The position numbers were made by a program, and so were the translations under genes. Shown here piece by piece: positions 9,074 to 47,893 of a stretch of 64,000 nt of DNA (its first letter is position 1; every line of letters begins with the position of its first letter). The notes under the pieces are model-generated. The model saw only the letters and a list, made by a program, of their open reading frames with translations, was not told the DNA's origin and did not search any database. The DNA is taken from contig CM000153.2 in NCBI GenBank assembly GCA_000004695.1, positions 3,872,001 through 3,936,000 of the forward strand. The letters run 5' to 3'. This DNA comes from Dictyostelium discoideum (Eukaryota).

Positions 9074-10987
9074 CTAAGTTGAAGTATTTGTTGTAGTTGT
9101 TGTATTTGAATTATTTGATTGTTGTGGTGGTACAAAAGCATTAACTAAAGTTGATAAAGAGTTATTTGATGAATCTAATTCATTTTTTGAATGATTTAAA
9201 AAATCTTTTCTTCTTGTACCTCTTAAAGATGGATAAGCAGTTTTAAAAGTTTGTTTTCTCATTTGACGATGAAATGAAGGATAGAGTAAAGTTTTACGTT
9301 CACCACTATTTTTCAAATCCTCTAAATGAATTTTAATTGAATTTCTAAATAATGATCTACTCTTATTTAAACAAAACAATGGTGCATCTTTTTGAATTGA
9401 TGATGATAATGGTGAATTTGATGGTGATGTTGAAGGTGATGTTGATGTTGATGATGTTGAACTAACTACATTATTTGTGGTGGTGGTAGTAGTCGTTGAT
9501 GAAGTGGATAATGATGATGATGATTTTTCAGAAATTTGTTGACTATTTTTTAAAGATGTAATTAAAGTATGTTGAATATGAATTTGAGTTTTTCTTTTTA
9601 AGATATCTTCATTTCTACATTTTTCACAAATTGATTCACCATTCTTTTCAAAATATTTACCACCTTCTAAAACCTCGTTACAACAGAAACATCTGAAACA
9701 AGTTGGACATAAATTTTTACCATTAACTTTTAAAAACATGCCATCTATATATTGGTTGCATTGGTCACATTTGGTACCTACCAATTCTTCGAAATGATCT
9801 TTACAATAGATTAGACCTTGATGGTCACCCAATTGACCCTCTATTTGAATAGCACATTTAGAACAAACCAAACAAGCTACATGCCATTTAAAATTCAATG
9901 CATCCATCATAACTTCGTCAACTATTGGTAATTTACAACCATAACATGTGATTTCAGAATGAGCTTCATTCATTATATGATTAACATCGCAATCAAAGCA
10001 AACCGGTTTATCGTTTCTAATATAATATAATGATGGATCCATTGGGGTTTCATCAAAACATTCTGAACATTGAAAACATTCTCTATGATAAATACCACAA
10101 TCCAATATAATTGGTCTACTTTGATTAATTGCCAATTCACATTTACTACAAATCATTGATTCAACTGTCATTTGTCGCCTTTTTCCATTATCTTCTAAAT
10201 CATTAAATATCATTGATGGATCAATTGATGATACTGGTGATGGTTCTGTTGATTTATCAATTTCAATAACTAATTTTATAATCTCTTTATCTAATTTATC
10301 ACAAATTTCTGGTATTTTATTCTCCAAAATATTTTCAATATTATCATTATTATTATTATCATCATCATCACCATTTTGTCGATTTTTATTATCAATACAA
10401 CTTGAACATTTAAATCTTCTAATATTATTGATATTTTCAACTATAAAATCTTTACCACCTAAATAACTTGTGCAATAATAACATAAAAAGCATGATCTGT
10501 GATAAATATGGTCACCCAATTCTTCAAAATCTGATGTTTTAATAACTAAATTACAACCTGAACAACTCTTAAAAAATTCAGTACCACAATCTGTACATAA
10601 CATTTCATTATTTTCAAATACACAATCTAAATTATATTTTTTTAAAGAAAAAAAAAAATCAACTTTAGTATATTATATCACAATTTTTCATTTATTCGTT
10701 TTGAATATTTATTTAAAACTTACCACTTTCACCACCCAATGGTTTTGAACATTTTACACAAACTACACATTTCCAATGATAATTTTCAGAATTTCTATTA
10801 ATTGATGGATCAGTTGCAGTTATAGGAAGATTACATTTTGGACAAATAAATGCTAATTTAGATCCTCTATTTTTAACAATTTTACTATTATTACCCCAAG
10901 CTGAAAAACTGTTATTATTAATAATGTTATTATTATTATTATTTTTATTTGAATTCTCATCGTTAATTTTATTATTATTACTATTAA

Positions 10988-18614: not shown

Positions 18615-19367
18615 GGGTTTTACACCGGCTCCCATTCCCCTTGAAACATTAATTACCAAAGGGGTGGTTTTTTTAAAATTAAATTAAACCTTCCCTTTTT
18701 CGGCTAAAACCCCTAAAAAAAAAATTTTTAATTAATTAAAATAAATTAATTAATTAATTAAAATTAAAAAAATTTTTAAAAAAATTAAATTAAATTAAAT
18801 TAAATTAAGGAAACCTTTTCTTATTGGAAAATTTTTTAAAAAATTTTTTTAATTGGGTTTTTTTTTTTTTTTTTTTTAAAAAAATACTTAGATTTTTTTT
18901 TTTTTTTTTATTGTTTTGTGAACCCGAAAGACTTTTAATTTTTTATTATTTTTTTTTTTTATAACCAAAAAAAAAAAAAAAAAAGAATATTATTAAACAA
19001 TAAAACTATATACACAAGATTAATAAATAATACTTAATCATATATAAATACAAAAAAAAAAATAATAATAATAATAAAAATAAAAATCACGATATATCCA
19101 TTGGCAACGAGAAATTAAGACCATACTAATTAATTAATTTAAAAAACAGTTGTCTTCATTTTTTTTTTCGAAACCAGCACAAATCTGATTAAAAAAAAGT
19201 ATGTTATTTCTTAAAAAAAAAAAATTAATTTTATTTATTTTTTTTTATTTTTTTTTTTTTTTCCTCCTCGAAAATATCTTTTTTTTTTTTCAAAGAGAAA
19301 AAAAAAAAACCAATCATCGTTGATGCTTTTTGCTTCCCAAATTTCTATTACAAAATATAAAAAATAA

Positions 19368-22502: not shown

Positions 22503-23906
<1,404 letters not shown>

Positions 23907-24202
23907 ACAAAAATAAAAATAAAAAAATAAAAAATAAAAAATAAAAAAACAAAAAAAAAAAAAAAAAAAAAAAAGAAAAAAAAGAAAAAAAAAAAAGAAA
24001 AAAAAAAGAAAGAAAAAAATCAATTAAATCAAAAGAATAATATTTATTAATTTAAAATTTCCTTTTTTTTTAATATTTTTTTTAATTGTATAATAATTTA
24101 TAAATAATAATATAATAAAAAAAATAAAAAAAAATTAATTCAAACACTTATCAAATTTCTTTCTTGTTTCTTTCCAAATTTTTTTTTTTCTTATTAAACA
24201 AA

Positions 24203-24340
24203 ATATAAATATGATTTTTAAAATTATATTTATATTTTGTTTAATAAGAATATTTTTAAAATCATATTTATATTTTGTTAAATTGTAAAATAAACAATTT
24301 CTATTGGATATCCAATAGAAATTGTTTATTTTACAATTAA
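24203..24340. repeat. Two adjacent perfect palindromes (19-bp arms with a 13-nt loop at 24203-24253; 27-bp arms centred on GATATC at 24283-24340) in the intergenic region between the CCCH gene and VIT-vWA copy 1
   Basis: ttaaacaaaatataaatat-gatttttaaaatt-atatttatattttgtttaa and ttgtaaaataaacaatttctattggata|tccaatagaaattgtttattttacaa read directly. A third near-copy of one arm (tcatatttatattttgtt) lies between them. Confidence 0.8.
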
Positions 24341-24572
24341 AAAAAAAAAAAAAAATTTAAAAATAATTTATTCAAAGAAAAAAAAAAAAAAACACATCGA
24401 TAAAGAAATTTGGCAAGAGTGTTCTTGAAATGAGAAATTAAAAAGAAATTATTTTTTATTTTTTTATTTTTTTTATTTTTTTTTTTTTATTATTTTTAAT
24501 TATTCTTGAAATTTTTTATTTATTAATCTATTTATTTATTTATTTATTTATTTGTTTTTTATTTATTTAAAA

Positions 24573-27326
<2,754 letters not shown>

Positions 27327-27795
27327 TATTTTTTAAACATTGAATAAAAAAAAAAACTTGTAAATAAATGGAAAAAGCAAAACAATAATTTAAAATAAAT
27401 TTCAACACTCTTATTTTTTTTTTTTAAATTAATTTTTTATTTGTTTTAAAAATTAAAAAAATGTTTTTATATTTAAATTACACCTAAATTAACTTTGTAA
27501 ATTAAAATATTATATTTTATTAAAAGCAGTTTTTCCAATTTATAAAATTCATTGAATTTTTTAATTTCATCCAAACATAAATTTTTTTATTTCCATGAAT
27601 TTTTTTTTTTTGAATTACCACAAAAAACATATTGAATAATATTTTATATTTTTTTTTTTTTTTTTCTCAATTTTTTTTTTAATCAAAATTAAATATCCAA
27701 AAAGATTTTTTTTATTTATTTTTTTATAAGAACTTCTTTTTTTTTAATTTTTCTATTTATTTGTTTTTGTGAATGAATTTATATTAAATAACAAA

Positions 27796-28845
<1,050 letters not shown>

Positions 28846-29445
28846 TATTTTTTAAATATTGAATAAAGAAAAAAACTTGTATAAAAGGTAAGGGAGGTCG
28901 GGTGTAAAAATTTCAACATTAAAGTGGTAATTTTATGAGGTACTGATGGGTTTGTCACCTCTTTTTTTTATTTTTTTTTTCACTTTTTTTTTTATTTTCT
29001 GTGTGGCTCCCCTTAACAAAAGTCAAAACAAAAATTTAAAATAAATTTTATAACTTTTTTTTATTTTTTTTTTTTAAACTAATTTTTTATTTGTGTAAAA
29101 AATTAAAAAAATGTTTTTAATTTAAATTACACTCAAATTAACTTTGTAAATTTAATTATTATATTTAAATAAAAGCAGTTTTTACAATTTAATAAATTCA
29201 TTGAAATCATTTAATTTCATTCAAACACCAAGTTTTTTATTTCAAAGAATTTTTTTTTTTGAATCACAAAAAATTAATAACCCCATCAATTTTTTTTTTT
29301 TTCTCAATTTTTTTTTTTTTTTTTTTTTCTTATCAAAATAAAAAAAAATAAATATAAATAAAAAAAATCTTTTTTGGATATATTTATATTATTTTAATTT
29401 TTCTATTTATTTGTTTTTGTGCATGAATTTATATTAAATAACAAA

Positions 29446-31941: not shown

Positions 31942-32474
31942 TATAAAAAAAAAAAAAAAAAAAAAAAAAAACTTGTAAATCTTTTCTTTTCTTTTCCAAT
32001 AAATAAACATTTTAATTATTAAAAAAAAAAATAATAAAATAATTTTATGAAATTGTTTGCATAAATAATATTATTGTTTATTGATTGGTATAAGAATAAT
32101 TGCAAATTACAAAAATGTACAATTAATTCGATATATATTAAAAAAAACTTTTTAAAAAAGAAAGAAATTAAATTTTATTTTAAAATCAATAAGAATTTAA
32201 AATGTGAGCTCTTTATTTTTAATAATTAAAAAAATATACCAAATTCATTAATTAAAAATTTAATTTATTAAATAAATATTTGAGGAATTAGTTTTCCACT
32301 TTAATTGTTTTTTTTTTTTTGTTGTTTTTTTTTTTTTTTTTTTTTGATGCTTATATTTTTGATGTTTGTAAATATGTAATTATAACAAAATTCTACAATA
32401 TGAAAGATTTGATTGATGGTTTACTAGGTGATATCATCTCATCTTTCTTTTTAATTGATTTTTTTTATATATTT

Positions 32475-33183
32475 CTAAATTCCTACTTCAGCTCCTGATG
32501 ATGAAGAAGATGAGGATGATGAAGAGGATGAAGAGGATGATGAAGATGATGAGGAAGACGAAGATGAAGATGATGAGGAAGACGAAGATGAAGATGAAGA
32601 GGATGAAGAAGAGGATGATGATGATGAGGATGATGATGAGGATGATGATGAGGATGATGATGAGGATGATGATGAGGATGATGATGAGGATGATGATGAT
32701 GAAGAGGAGGATGAGGATGATGAAGATGAAGAAGAAGAGGATGAGGATGATGAAGATGAAGAAGAAGAGGATGAGGATGATGAAGAAGAAGAAGATGAGG
32801 AAGAAGAAGAAGATGAGGAAGAAGAAGATGATGATGATGAAGAAGAGGATGAAGAAGAAGAAGATGATGATGATGAGGAAGATGATGAACTATAAGAAAG
32901 CAAGTTTCTTGAAGTTTCAATAACCAAAGAAAATCCTCCTATTTTATTTTCTAATAAATCATTTCCATTTAAATTTTTTCTTAAAAATAAAAAAAAAAAA
33001 ATTAGTATTTACTGGATTTATTTATTCTAGGAAAAAAAAAAAAAAAAAAACCTACTTTAAAGAGTATAAATTTATTTTTGGTTCTTGATTTGTTATATTG
33101 ACGCTTTTTCTATGAGGGTTAATAAACATCGGAATTGTTATTAACAAACATGCAAAAATTATGAAAAACCATTTATAATTCAT
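32475..33183 (-). CDS. Candidate secreted poly-serine protein: exon 1 33056..33183 (signal peptide) and exon 2 32475..32889 (~135 consecutive Ser), 166-bp intron; ~180 aa
   Basis: ATG at 33183-33181 encodes MNYKWFFIIFACLLITIPMFINPHRKSVNITNQEPKINLYSL. Donor AA|GTAGGT at 33055-33050 (phase 2) and acceptor TTCTTATAG at 32891-32890 join in frame to TCA/TCT/TCC Ser codons and the C-terminus GAEVGI-stop. The poly-Ser ORF has no ATG of its own. The opposite strand reads the same tract as poly-Asp/Glu (see finding). Confidence 0.4.
32495..32890. repeat. Imperfect (GAT/GAA/GAG)n trinucleotide tract of ~400 bp (Asp/Glu on the plus strand, Ser on the minus strand)
   Basis: Read directly: gatgatgaagaagatgaggatgatgaagagg... 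with internal higher-order (GATGATGAGGAT)n blocks. Confidence 0.9.
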
Positions 33184-44754: not shown

Positions 44755-45692
44755 ATGGCAAGCTCTTCACCAAATATAGCATCACCTCAATTAGGTATAA
44801 GGAATAGATTTTTGAATACAAGTAGTGGAAATATAAATTTACAAACCAATAATAATAATAATAACAATAACAATAATAATAATGATATAAATGATAATAT
44901 AGCATCACCTCCAATTTCAAATAATAATAATAGTAATACAGCATGTTCGCCGCAATTAGTGTTACCTACAACACCTACACCAACATCTACCAATATTTTA
45001 AGCCCATTAACTAATAGCAACATACCGATATCANNNNNNNNNNNNNNNNNNNNNNNNNNNNNNNNNNNNNNNNNNNNNNNNNNNNNNNNNNNNNNNNNNN
45101 NNNNNNNNNNNNNNNNNNNNNNNNNNNNNNNNNTCTACAACAACAACAGCAACAACAGCAACAACAACAACAACAACAACCTCAAAATACTATACATCAA
45201 CATCATAGTCAACTCTTACAGTATCAACACCAACATCAACAACAACATAATCAACAGTATCCACAACCATTACAACACAACCATCAACAACAACAACATC
45301 AAAATCAACAACAGCAAAATCAACAACAGCAAAATCAAAATCAACAACAGCAAAATCAACAACAACAGCAAAATCAACAACAAAATCAACAACAAATTAA
45401 TAATGCAGCACCAGTTAGAAAGAAATATAAACCATTACAAAGAAATAATACAGCAAATCATGATTTAACAGCATTTTATGGATGGATTATTATTATATGT
45501 ACATTAACTTTTTTCATTATTTCAACATATTGTTTAGTATTTTCAAAGTTATTACCTGATACTGGTAACAGAATTTTAGATTTCATAAAGTATGATTGGT
45601 ATTATTGCTTATTGGTACCTGTTATTATACCTGTCACTATTATAACTGTTTATTTCAATTGGTTAAGTTTAAAGTTCTTTAGACATAATTAA
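44755..45692 (+). CDS. PIG-Y/Eri1-type GPI-GlcNAc transferase subunit (C-terminal two-TM domain) with a long Asn/Gln-rich N-terminal extension; CDS interrupted by an assembly gap
   Basis: The C-terminus YYCLLVPVIIPVTIITVYFNWLSLKFFRHN-stop (stop 45690-45692) aligns with human PIGY ..CFYSLLLPITIPVYVFFHLWTWMGIKLFRHN-stop. The post-gap reading frame is open and Gln-rich back to the gap with no in-frame ATG, so the start lies before or inside the gap. An ATG-initiated Asn-rich ORF (44755) runs into the gap from the 5' side. Confidence 0.55.
45034..45133. other. Assembly gap (100 N)
   Basis: Run of n characters; the length is a placeholder, so reading-frame continuity across it is unknown. Confidence 1.
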
Positions 45693-47808: not shown

Positions 47809-47821
47809 TTTAATAAAAAAG

Positions 47822-47893
47822 CTCCCTGTCCGGGAATTGAACCCGGGCCTTTCGCGTGACAGGCGAAAATCCTCACCACTAGACCAACAAGGA
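47822..47893 (-). tRNA. tRNA-Asp (anticodon GUC), 72 nt, intron-less, followed by a T6 Pol III terminator
   Basis: Minus-strand sequence TCCTTGTTGGTCTAGTGGTGAGGATTTTCGCCTGTCACGCGAAAGGCCCGGGTTCAATTCCCGGACAGGGAG. 7-bp acceptor stem (1 G-U pair). D-loop AGTGGTGA. Anticodon stem TTCGC/GCGAA with loop CTGTCAC (GTC at 34-36). T-arm CCGGG-TTCAATT-CCCGG. Discriminator G. TTTTTT immediately 3'. Confidence 0.85.

Follow-up and report, generated by a model that had tools for sequence, protein, structure and literature searches.

How two long palindromes came to lie between two genes of Dictyostelium discoideum, and whether they serve any function there, are the questions raised by this locus. The palindromes occupy a 666-bp spacer within the 64-kb stretch of DNA analysed here (hereafter the window), which has an A+T content of 78% and whose best protein matches come from D. 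discoideum and its close relatives (i.e., a social-amoeba genome and a eukaryote). Both genes bordering the spacer are encoded on the plus strand. The upstream gene (22503-23906, with its stop codon ending at 23906) is a tandem CCCH zinc-finger gene, which we assign to the TTP/ZFP36 family from the zf-CCCH domains of its homologues and from their names, "butyrate response factor 1" in some sources. The downstream gene (ATG at 24573) is VIT-vWA copy 1, which opens a tandem series of such genes. Palindrome 1 begins 282 nt 3' of the CCCH stop and palindrome 2 ends 235 nt 5' of the VIT-vWA start codon, close to where the initial annotation had located two long palindromes between these genes.

Palindrome 2 (24281-24338) is perfect and 58 bp long, with arms of 29 nt, AATTGTAAAATAAACAATTTCTATTGGAT and ATCCAATAGAAATTGTTTATTTTACAATT, that meet without any spacer. 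It is the object earlier described as having 27-bp arms around a GATATC centre, counted differently. Palindrome 1 consists of two arms of 31 nt each (24188-24218 and 24220-24250), 97% complementary, around a centre of one nucleotide, T24219. Its outer perfect stretch extends over 25 nt and its sole arm mismatch opposes G24213 to T24225, a pair that would become a G-U wobble in a plus-strand RNA. The hairpin with 19-bp arms initially noted at this position does exist, although its arms had been underestimated and a third copy of the arm had been overlooked. This third copy is 28 nt long (24252-24279) and contains a 22-nt core, AAAATCATATTTATATTTTGTT (24258-24279), which is the perfect complement of 24197-24218. 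The 29-mer AATTGTAAAATAAACAATTTCTATTGGAT and the 25-mer TTCTTATTAAACAAAATATAAATAT constitute probe sequences for the locus.

Palindromes of this length had been deemed beyond chance expectation even in AT-rich DNA, and our simulations agree. The longest arm encountered in 60 third-order Markov simulations of 64 kb was 10-15 nt, and dinucleotide shuffles yielded no match to the 29-mer, even with 3 mismatches allowed. The next longest non-low-complexity perfect palindrome of the window has arms of 10 nt, and no other palindrome outside low-complexity sequence reaches an arm length of 13 nt anywhere in the 233 kb made up by the window and the related loci. When folded as DNA, the 175 nt between 24176 and 24350 reach -51.5 kcal/mol (z = -12.9). 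A chance origin of both palindromes is excluded. Identical copies, which would point to a repeat family, were absent from the rest of the window, including the regions upstream of VIT-vWA copies 2 and 3, where the initial annotation had already seen none, and from the approximately 170 kb of related Dictyostelium loci. An exact-match scan of metagenome and viral contig collections with a 25-mer of the palindrome 2 arm also returned 0 matches.

The orthologous CCCH-to-VIT-vWA spacer was gathered from eight other assemblies by means of exact-protein look-ups and two homology searches, giving nine spacers together with that of the window. Most of the compared assemblies appear to come from a Dictyostelium genome set comprising AX2, two tropical D. 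discoideum isolates, two possible cryptic species, D. citrinum and others (PMC12745789). Exact matches of the CCCH and VIT-vWA proteins of the window were found only in GCA_054883475.1. This chromosome-scale assembly (L001/L004) shares 99.2% identity with the window across 7.4 kb and carries both palindromes base for base. Because an independent assembly has them unchanged, the palindromes are not an assembly artefact; the window and this assembly may nonetheless represent the same laboratory lineage. These two are the only carriers among the nine orthologous spacers. In two divergent isolates labelled D. discoideum (L003 and L005), 92-94% identical to the window in the spacer, a single segment that we call A (…CTTATCGAACAAAATATATAAATATGATTTTT) directly abuts a single segment resembling B, ACCAAGAGAAATAAATTTATTTCC, itself followed by an A-run. 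The two cf. discoideum assemblies also lack palindromes: one (L002) is devoid of the entire segment and the other (L006) contains an unrelated insert of 254 bp at the same spot. The two D. citrinum assemblies (L007 and L008) contain just one A-like segment, itself quasi-palindromic; its alignment to the inverted copy, A', is marginally better than that to A, such that its orientation is ambiguous. D. dimigraforme (L009) exhibits neither a palindrome nor any recognisable A- or B-like segment.

Alignment of the nine spacers reveals where the palindromes stand relative to conserved DNA. On the plus strand, a 3'UTR-like block (24017-24146) is 93-100% identical in 7/7 assemblies from other lineages, which belong to four named taxa. 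It bears AUUUA/UAUUUAU motifs together with AATAAA signals and presumably is the functional 3'UTR of the TTP-like CCCH gene. About 40 nt separate the end of this block (~24146) from the start of the palindromes. The variable segment is bracketed on the left by a run of 11 T (24179-24189), a site at which a T-rich run is seen in all relatives, and on the right by a run of 17 A (24339-24355), also conserved in relatives, with which the T-run is predicted to pair. The middle zone (24187-24346) covers the ~150 bp in which the spacer is least conserved, with an identity to the window of only 0.07-0.42 and a differing state in nearly every lineage. Beyond ~24347, the relatives match the window again with an identity of 0.64-0.83. 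This last zone takes in a G/C-containing block on the plus strand, CACATCGATAAAGAAATTTGGCAAGAGTGTTCTTGAAATGAGAAATT (24392-24447), conserved among the assemblies of D. discoideum and cf. discoideum, which presumably corresponds to the promoter region of VIT-vWA copy 1. The palindromes sit exactly in the unconstrained, indel-prone zone of the spacer.

The two D. discoideum isolates devoid of palindromes allow the arms to be sorted into old and new DNA. Segment A (24188-24219, plus strand), i.e., the left arm of palindrome 1 plus its centre T24219, is homologous to the single A of L003 and L005, with direct-orientation alignment scores of 48 and 43, respectively, neither of which was reached by any of 300 shuffles. 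Segment B (24310-24338, plus strand), the right arm of palindrome 2, is homologous to the ACCAAGAGAAATAAATTTATTTCC that follows A in these isolates but has diverged from it; its direct-orientation score was reached by 4/300 shuffles for L003 and 2/300 for L005. No significant similarity to L003 or L005 was detected for the inverted arms A' and B' (300 shuffles). Since A and B match these isolates directly and A' and B' do not, the outer arms represent old local sequence and the inner arms new copies, which rules out the arrival of a foreign element.

Deleting 90 nt (24220-24309) restores collinearity with L003 across the junction between GATTTTT and A(T)CCAA, without loss of any flank base relative to L003. 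The whole can be written A-A'*-t-A'-a-B'-B, in which the starred tract (24220-24250, minus strand), the right arm of palindrome 1, is 31 nt long and agrees with the reverse complement of 24188-24218 at all positions but one (30/31). It is followed by a linker T (24251) that, as read from the sequence, lies outside the templated tracts, and by a second tract of 28 nt (24252-24279, minus strand), the third arm copy, of which 27/28 positions match either 24197-24224 inverted or 24214-24241 in direct orientation. A linker A (24280), which would mark the join between products built from the left and right flanks, precedes the third tract (24281-24309, minus strand), the left arm of palindrome 2 and a perfect 29-nt reverse complement of 24310-24338 (29/29). 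Altogether, 88 of the 90 inserted nucleotides are templated by the two immediate flanks, located 0-1 nt away, with 2 mismatches in 88 nt. Judging from its sequence, the insert is a locally templated inverted insertion. Such events are rare here, as shown by a survey of ~60 indels of at least 12 nt that distinguish the window from L002, L003, L005 and L006: long inverted matches to complex flanking sequence were encountered at the palindrome locus only. One other indel (18962-18997) has an inverted match, of 17 nt, that looks like an A-run against a T-run, and the remaining ones are microsatellite or direct-repeat changes.

In our view, the palindromes are the scar of a recent mutation confined to one lineage, in which the two flanks of a single junction were copied in inverted orientation, a reading to which we attach a probability of roughly 0.8. 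It builds on what is directly observed at this locus, namely what the insert is composed of and where exactly it lies, that sister lineages and outgroups lack it, and that A and B are homologous to single-copy sequence of the locus. The direction of change depends on parsimony and on the perfection of the arms, neither of which is decisive. A gain on the branch leading to the window demands one event, whereas an ancestral gain followed by a loss in L003/L005 demands two. The arms differ by 1 mismatch in 60 pairs, and the window differs from L003/L005 at 6-8% of the aligned spacer positions. Arms already present when the L003/L005 lineage separated should have accumulated 3.6-6 mismatches, and the probability of finding at most one would be 0.02-0.13. 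The near-perfection of the arms therefore supports a recent origin without deciding the matter.

The opposite polarity, in which the palindromes were ancestral in D. discoideum and L003/L005 lost the inner copies through a centre-to-centre deletion (i.e., breakage at the hairpin tips followed by end joining), seems unlikely to us. Long AT-rich palindromes are unstable, and the interval missing from the two isolates runs nearly exactly from 24219/24220 to 24309/24310, as the cleavage of two hairpins at their tips predicts; a deletion of this kind would likewise leave a clean junction between A and B. Yet this scenario involves the additional event, no outgroup retains any inverted copy, and the arms are closer to identity than such an age would predict. 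Even then, the palindromes would still have been born by local inverted duplication, only earlier.

A mobile origin is the other way in which a palindromic insertion polymorphism may be read, either as a small foldback or MITE-like element or as the excision footprint of a hairpin-forming transposon (hAT, Transib, MULE). The arrangement of A-A' and B'-B is what would be expected from hairpin-capped flanks opened off-centre (PMC5499845), and another lineage (L006) bears an unrelated insert at the same site. Nevertheless, a target-site duplication is missing: A ends with the octamer TGATTTTT and B opens with a different one, ATCCAATA, and neither 24220-24309 nor 24188-24338 is flanked by direct repeats. 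The arms have single-copy homologues at the empty site of L003/L005 and consequently did not come from elsewhere, and further copies were found neither in the window, nor in the 170 kb of related loci, nor among the metagenome and viral contigs. Footprint tracts of the P-nucleotide type normally measure 1-5 nt, against 29-31 nt here, and the second A' tract is not predicted by such a process. Taken together, a mobile element or its footprint is a highly improbable source. Among the options listed in the initial annotation, a footprint or recombination-type event nonetheless comes closest to the comparative data, provided that it is not taken as a transposon excision footprint in the strict sense, given the missing target-site duplication and the clean A/B junction of the sister lineages. 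The 254-bp insert of L006 was itself considered as a mobile element and rejected, as it has no terminal inverted repeats, target-site duplication or repeated copies. It gave only low-complexity matches of 70-75%, and neither A, A', B nor B' resembles it significantly against shuffles, with no homologue in the B' orientation.

Returning to inverted copying of both flanks, the following course of events would account for the insert. The ancestor would have carried a single A (…AACAAAATATAAATATGATTTTT) abutting a single B (A(T)CCAA.AGAAAT…) in the unconstrained middle of the spacer. A break or a stalled fork at the A/B junction would have started the event, possibly nucleated by the AT-rich, quasi-palindromic A and by the inverted repeat formed by the flanking T-run and A-run. 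DNA synthesis would then have copied both immediate flanks in inverted orientation, A twice (31 nt, then 28 nt) and B once (29 nt), and joining of the products would have generated the present arrangement, with its 90-nt insert and intact flanks. Two rounds of synthesis starting at the left end, plus one at the right end, would cover the three tracts and both linker bases, as well as the one or two mismatches if these are copying errors. The single arm mismatch would represent either a copying error or a later substitution. Three tracts and two linkers fit one reiterated event as well as a cascade of events, no intermediate alleles being present in the compared set.

The cause would be either template switching or fold-back repair synthesis. 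We favour one double-strand break or fork collapse, repaired by templated synthesis that was reiterated and of low processivity, as in template switching or the action of polymerase theta. Since a fold-back needs a loop and the spacers here are of 0 and 1 nt, the template must have been another strand or molecule, or else a covalently closed hairpin end. It was probably the sister or the complementary strand. Much less probably, the spacer-free tracts of 29-31 nt would go back to covalently closed hairpin ends that were cut open at a distance from their tips; if true, this would disclose an unusual mode of break processing in D. discoideum. The insertion model leaves one feature unaccounted for, the excess divergence of segment B, which differs from its L003 version at ~30% of positions, far above the divergence of the flanks. 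Segment B encloses an internal 6-bp inverted repeat (AATTGT...ACAATT); a further template switch through this repeat was considered as the source of the differences and abandoned, as no convincing reconstruction was obtained.

Several known processes produce comparable structures. Template-switch mutations (TSMs), formalised in the four-point model of Löytynoja and Goldman 2017 (PMC5453318; see also Mönttinen and Löytynoja 2022, PMC8794818), make perfect hairpins in a single event (PMC5453318, PMC8794818, PMC10710096). As in TSMs, the insert is an exact reverse complement of adjacent DNA that creates a perfect stem at an AT-rich, quasi-palindromic site, and it is detectable only against the ancestral or outgroup state, in which the template is present and the inverted copy is absent. 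Unlike TSMs, it combines three tracts from both sides of one junction within 90 nt, which under the TSM model would take either repeated switching during one event or a succession of events. It is also our impression that tracts of 28-31 nt, and palindromes of 58 and 63 bp, are on the long side for published TSMs.

Polymerase theta offers a second comparison. Its flank-templated inserts include reverse-complement "snap-back" copies and reiterated, overlapping tracts mostly taken from one flank, are primed from as little as a single base and contain ~1 error per 30 nt; they are mostly shorter than 25 nt and usually accompanied by a deletion (van Schendel et al. 2016, PMC5068794). End joining by polymerase theta with templated insertions has also been described by Kent et al. 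2016 (PMC4912351), and D. discoideum encodes both PolQ (DDB_G0277749) and Lig3 (PMC8529158). The present insert resembles these products in that its inverted templates abut the junction (such templates lie within ~10-25 bp of the break), in its two overlapping A' tracts from one flank, in its minimal junction homology and in its 2 mismatches per 88 nt, to be compared with ~1 in 30. It differs from them by its 90 nt, its tracts of 28-31 nt and its intact flanks, and the spacers of 0-1 nt are incompatible with a simple intramolecular fold-back of the snap-back type. As regards mutational mechanisms, reiterated tracts of 28-31 nt drawn from two sides limit the models that are possible.

Cleavage with hairpin formation, as carried out by hAT, Transib and MULE elements and by RAG during V(D)J recombination, leaves palindromic footprints of the P-nucleotide type (PMC5499845). 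The locus is similar in its order, in which a flank and its inverted copy are followed by the other inverted copy and its flank, with spacer-free palindromes on both sides; it departs from such footprints by its lack of target-site duplication or known element, by its tract length and by its second A' copy. A last comparison is provided by the human PATRRs, AT-rich near-perfect palindromes of hundreds of bp that form cruciforms and behave as fragile sites. The Dictyostelium palindromes likewise are AT-rich and near-perfect, reside in non-coding DNA and have a high hairpin or cruciform potential, but they reach only 58-63 bp and no associated rearrangement was seen in the assemblies examined. 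The feature is best read as a fresh example of an already known kind of mutation, and not as a conserved signal, a terminator or a mobile element. Its value resides in providing a natural example, with both the before and the after states, of the birth of long perfect palindromes in an extremely AT-rich genome, here by inverted copying of both flanks and neither by transposition nor by selection for a signal.

This origin bears on the functions that could be proposed for the palindromes. A role in transcription termination had been suggested initially and does not hold. The genome is eukaryotic, and the 3' ends of RNA polymerase II transcripts are not formed by a hairpin followed by a T-run. 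The candidate also fails as an intrinsic terminator by its AT-rich stems and by the A-run that follows palindrome 2 on the plus strand. Moreover, the AATAAA-bearing 3'UTR block ends upstream, at ~24146, and relatives with an intact CCCH gene do without the palindromes. A palindromic transcription-factor site acting on the VIT-vWA or the CCCH gene is one form of the proposal that the palindromes are a functional element, and the centre of palindrome 2 does create inverted CCAAT boxes (ATTGG-ATAT-CCAAT). The palindrome is nonetheless missing wherever else both flanking genes are intact, including in the two D. discoideum isolates and in every other lineage. Striking palindromes in Dictyostelium spacers should not be annotated as regulatory sites or terminators without comparative support.

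The other form of a functional element would be a locus for a hairpin RNA or proto-miRNA processed by DrnB. If transcribed, the plus strand of 24176-24350 (175 nt) is predicted to fold into two adjacent, fully paired stems of ~30 bp (-63.8 kcal/mol, z = -14.3). The miRNAs of D. discoideum are mostly intergenic and nearly all recent, and they evolve by the gain and loss of hairpin "modules" (PMC11014262, PMC6161686); moreover, miRNA hairpins have been documented to arise de novo by template switching (PMC10710096). Against this, known ddi-miRNA hairpins are longer and imperfect. At gathering thresholds, Rfam recovered a single tRNA in the whole window, at 47.8 kb, and no family at the palindrome locus. 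Between 23800 and 24700, with E-values up to 10, only sub-threshold generic miRNA-hairpin matches were obtained, the best of them, mir-653, scoring 29.8 bits where the gathering score is 77. Sub-sequences of the arms, in DNA and RNA alphabets, were absent from the text-format supplements of PMC6161686, PMC4894637 and PMC11014262. We therefore give hardly any credence to a functional element of either form, and no sequence-specific biological function is assigned to the palindromes. Their likely consequences are structural only, i.e., a cruciform or hairpin potential and local fragility. It is a distinct and very unlikely proposition that the insertion, by making in one mutational step a pair of ~30-bp hairpins 3' of the 3'UTR of the TTP-like gene, would have created a newborn DrnA/DrnB substrate, if read-through or intergenic transcription extends over them. 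Were it true, the locus would represent a proto-miRNA or hairpin-siRNA "module" at birth, still polymorphic in D. discoideum, and a direct view of what fuels the fast turnover of dictyostelid miRNAs (PMC11014262). The palindromes are in this respect relevant to the origin of hairpin-RNA loci and to their quick turnover in dictyostelids.

The position of the palindromes at the edge of the tandem VIT-vWA genes had also led to the suggestion that they contributed to the expansion of the array. The homology shared by the upstream regions of VIT-vWA copies 1, 2 and 3 begins at ~24447, about 110 bp 3' of the palindromes, which places the latter outside the repeat unit. Every palindrome-free relative already possesses a tandem array of 2-3 VIT-vWA genes, and the palindromes therefore took no part in its expansion and have no bearing on it.

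The variable segment of the spacer between the TTP-like CCCH gene and the first copy of the tandem VIT-vWA array is bracketed by a T-run (24179-24189) and an A-run (24339-24355), and the site between these two runs is an indel hotspot across lineages. In the D. cf. discoideum assembly L006, an unrelated 254-bp AT-rich insert (9516-9769) occupies exactly the palindrome site, in the sequence orthologous to ~24190-24340 of the window. This insert has neither terminal inverted repeats nor a target-site duplication, and no repeated copies of it were found in the loci compared. Segment B (24310-24338), an outer palindrome arm homologous to single-copy DNA in the divergent D. discoideum isolates (7696-7719 in L003), differs from that DNA at ~30% of positions, with nearly identical flanks on both sides. 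It also contains a 6-bp inverted repeat, AATTGT…ACAATT. The divergence of segment B may point to additional mutagenesis at this site, or to another small template switch, tied to the insertion event, which left the 90-nt inverted insert at 24220-24309.

Alignment of the spacer with seven other-lineage assemblies, comprising D. discoideum isolates, cf. discoideum, D. citrinum and D. dimigraforme, revealed a block of ~130 nt shortly 3' of the CCCH stop codon (24017-24146) that exhibits 93-100% identity in all seven; the remaining spacer aligns poorly among them. This block contains AU-rich motifs of the UAUUUAU/AUUUA type along with AATAAA signals. Since AU-rich elements of this type are bound by TTP-family proteins, the block may, judging by its motifs, constitute a putative autoregulatory 3'UTR of the TTP-like CCCH gene. 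A second, G/C-containing block, CACATCGATAAAGAAATTTGGCAAGAGTGTTCTTGAAATGAGAAATT (24392-24447), lies ~125-180 bp before the ATG of VIT-vWA copy 1. It is conserved in the assemblies of D. discoideum and cf. discoideum and is likely a promoter element. Directly after it, at ~24447, the sequence begins to resemble the regions upstream of copies 2 and 3.

Within the array itself, the middle copy (copy 2, 27327-29445) appears truncated, its sole open part in the window being a C-terminal-like ORF of 192 aa (28131-28709). The matching called gene in L004 (GCA_054883475.1) encodes 288 aa. Relatives carry 2-3 full-length VIT-vWA copies, and therefore both the copy number and the integrity of the array differ among lineages.

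Between 16357 and 31729, the identity of the window to L003 and L005, both labelled D. discoideum, is only ~88-95%, which places them nearly as far from it as "D. cf. discoideum". Such a distance is consistent with the deep structure that PMC12745789 describes in Dictyostelium, and with the possible cryptic species reported there.

Further along the window, a long simple coding-type repeat (32299-32927), GAT/GAA-rich (Asp/Glu) on the + strand, is overlain by a GC skew of +0.6 (32001-33000) and differs in length between strains, with a 51-nt indel relative to L005. The 150-aa poly-Ser ORF on its minus strand is probably spurious. Past an assembly gap of 100 N (45034-45133), a single tRNA-Asp (GTC) gene on the minus strand (47821-47893) is the only above-threshold Rfam family match in the 64 kb.
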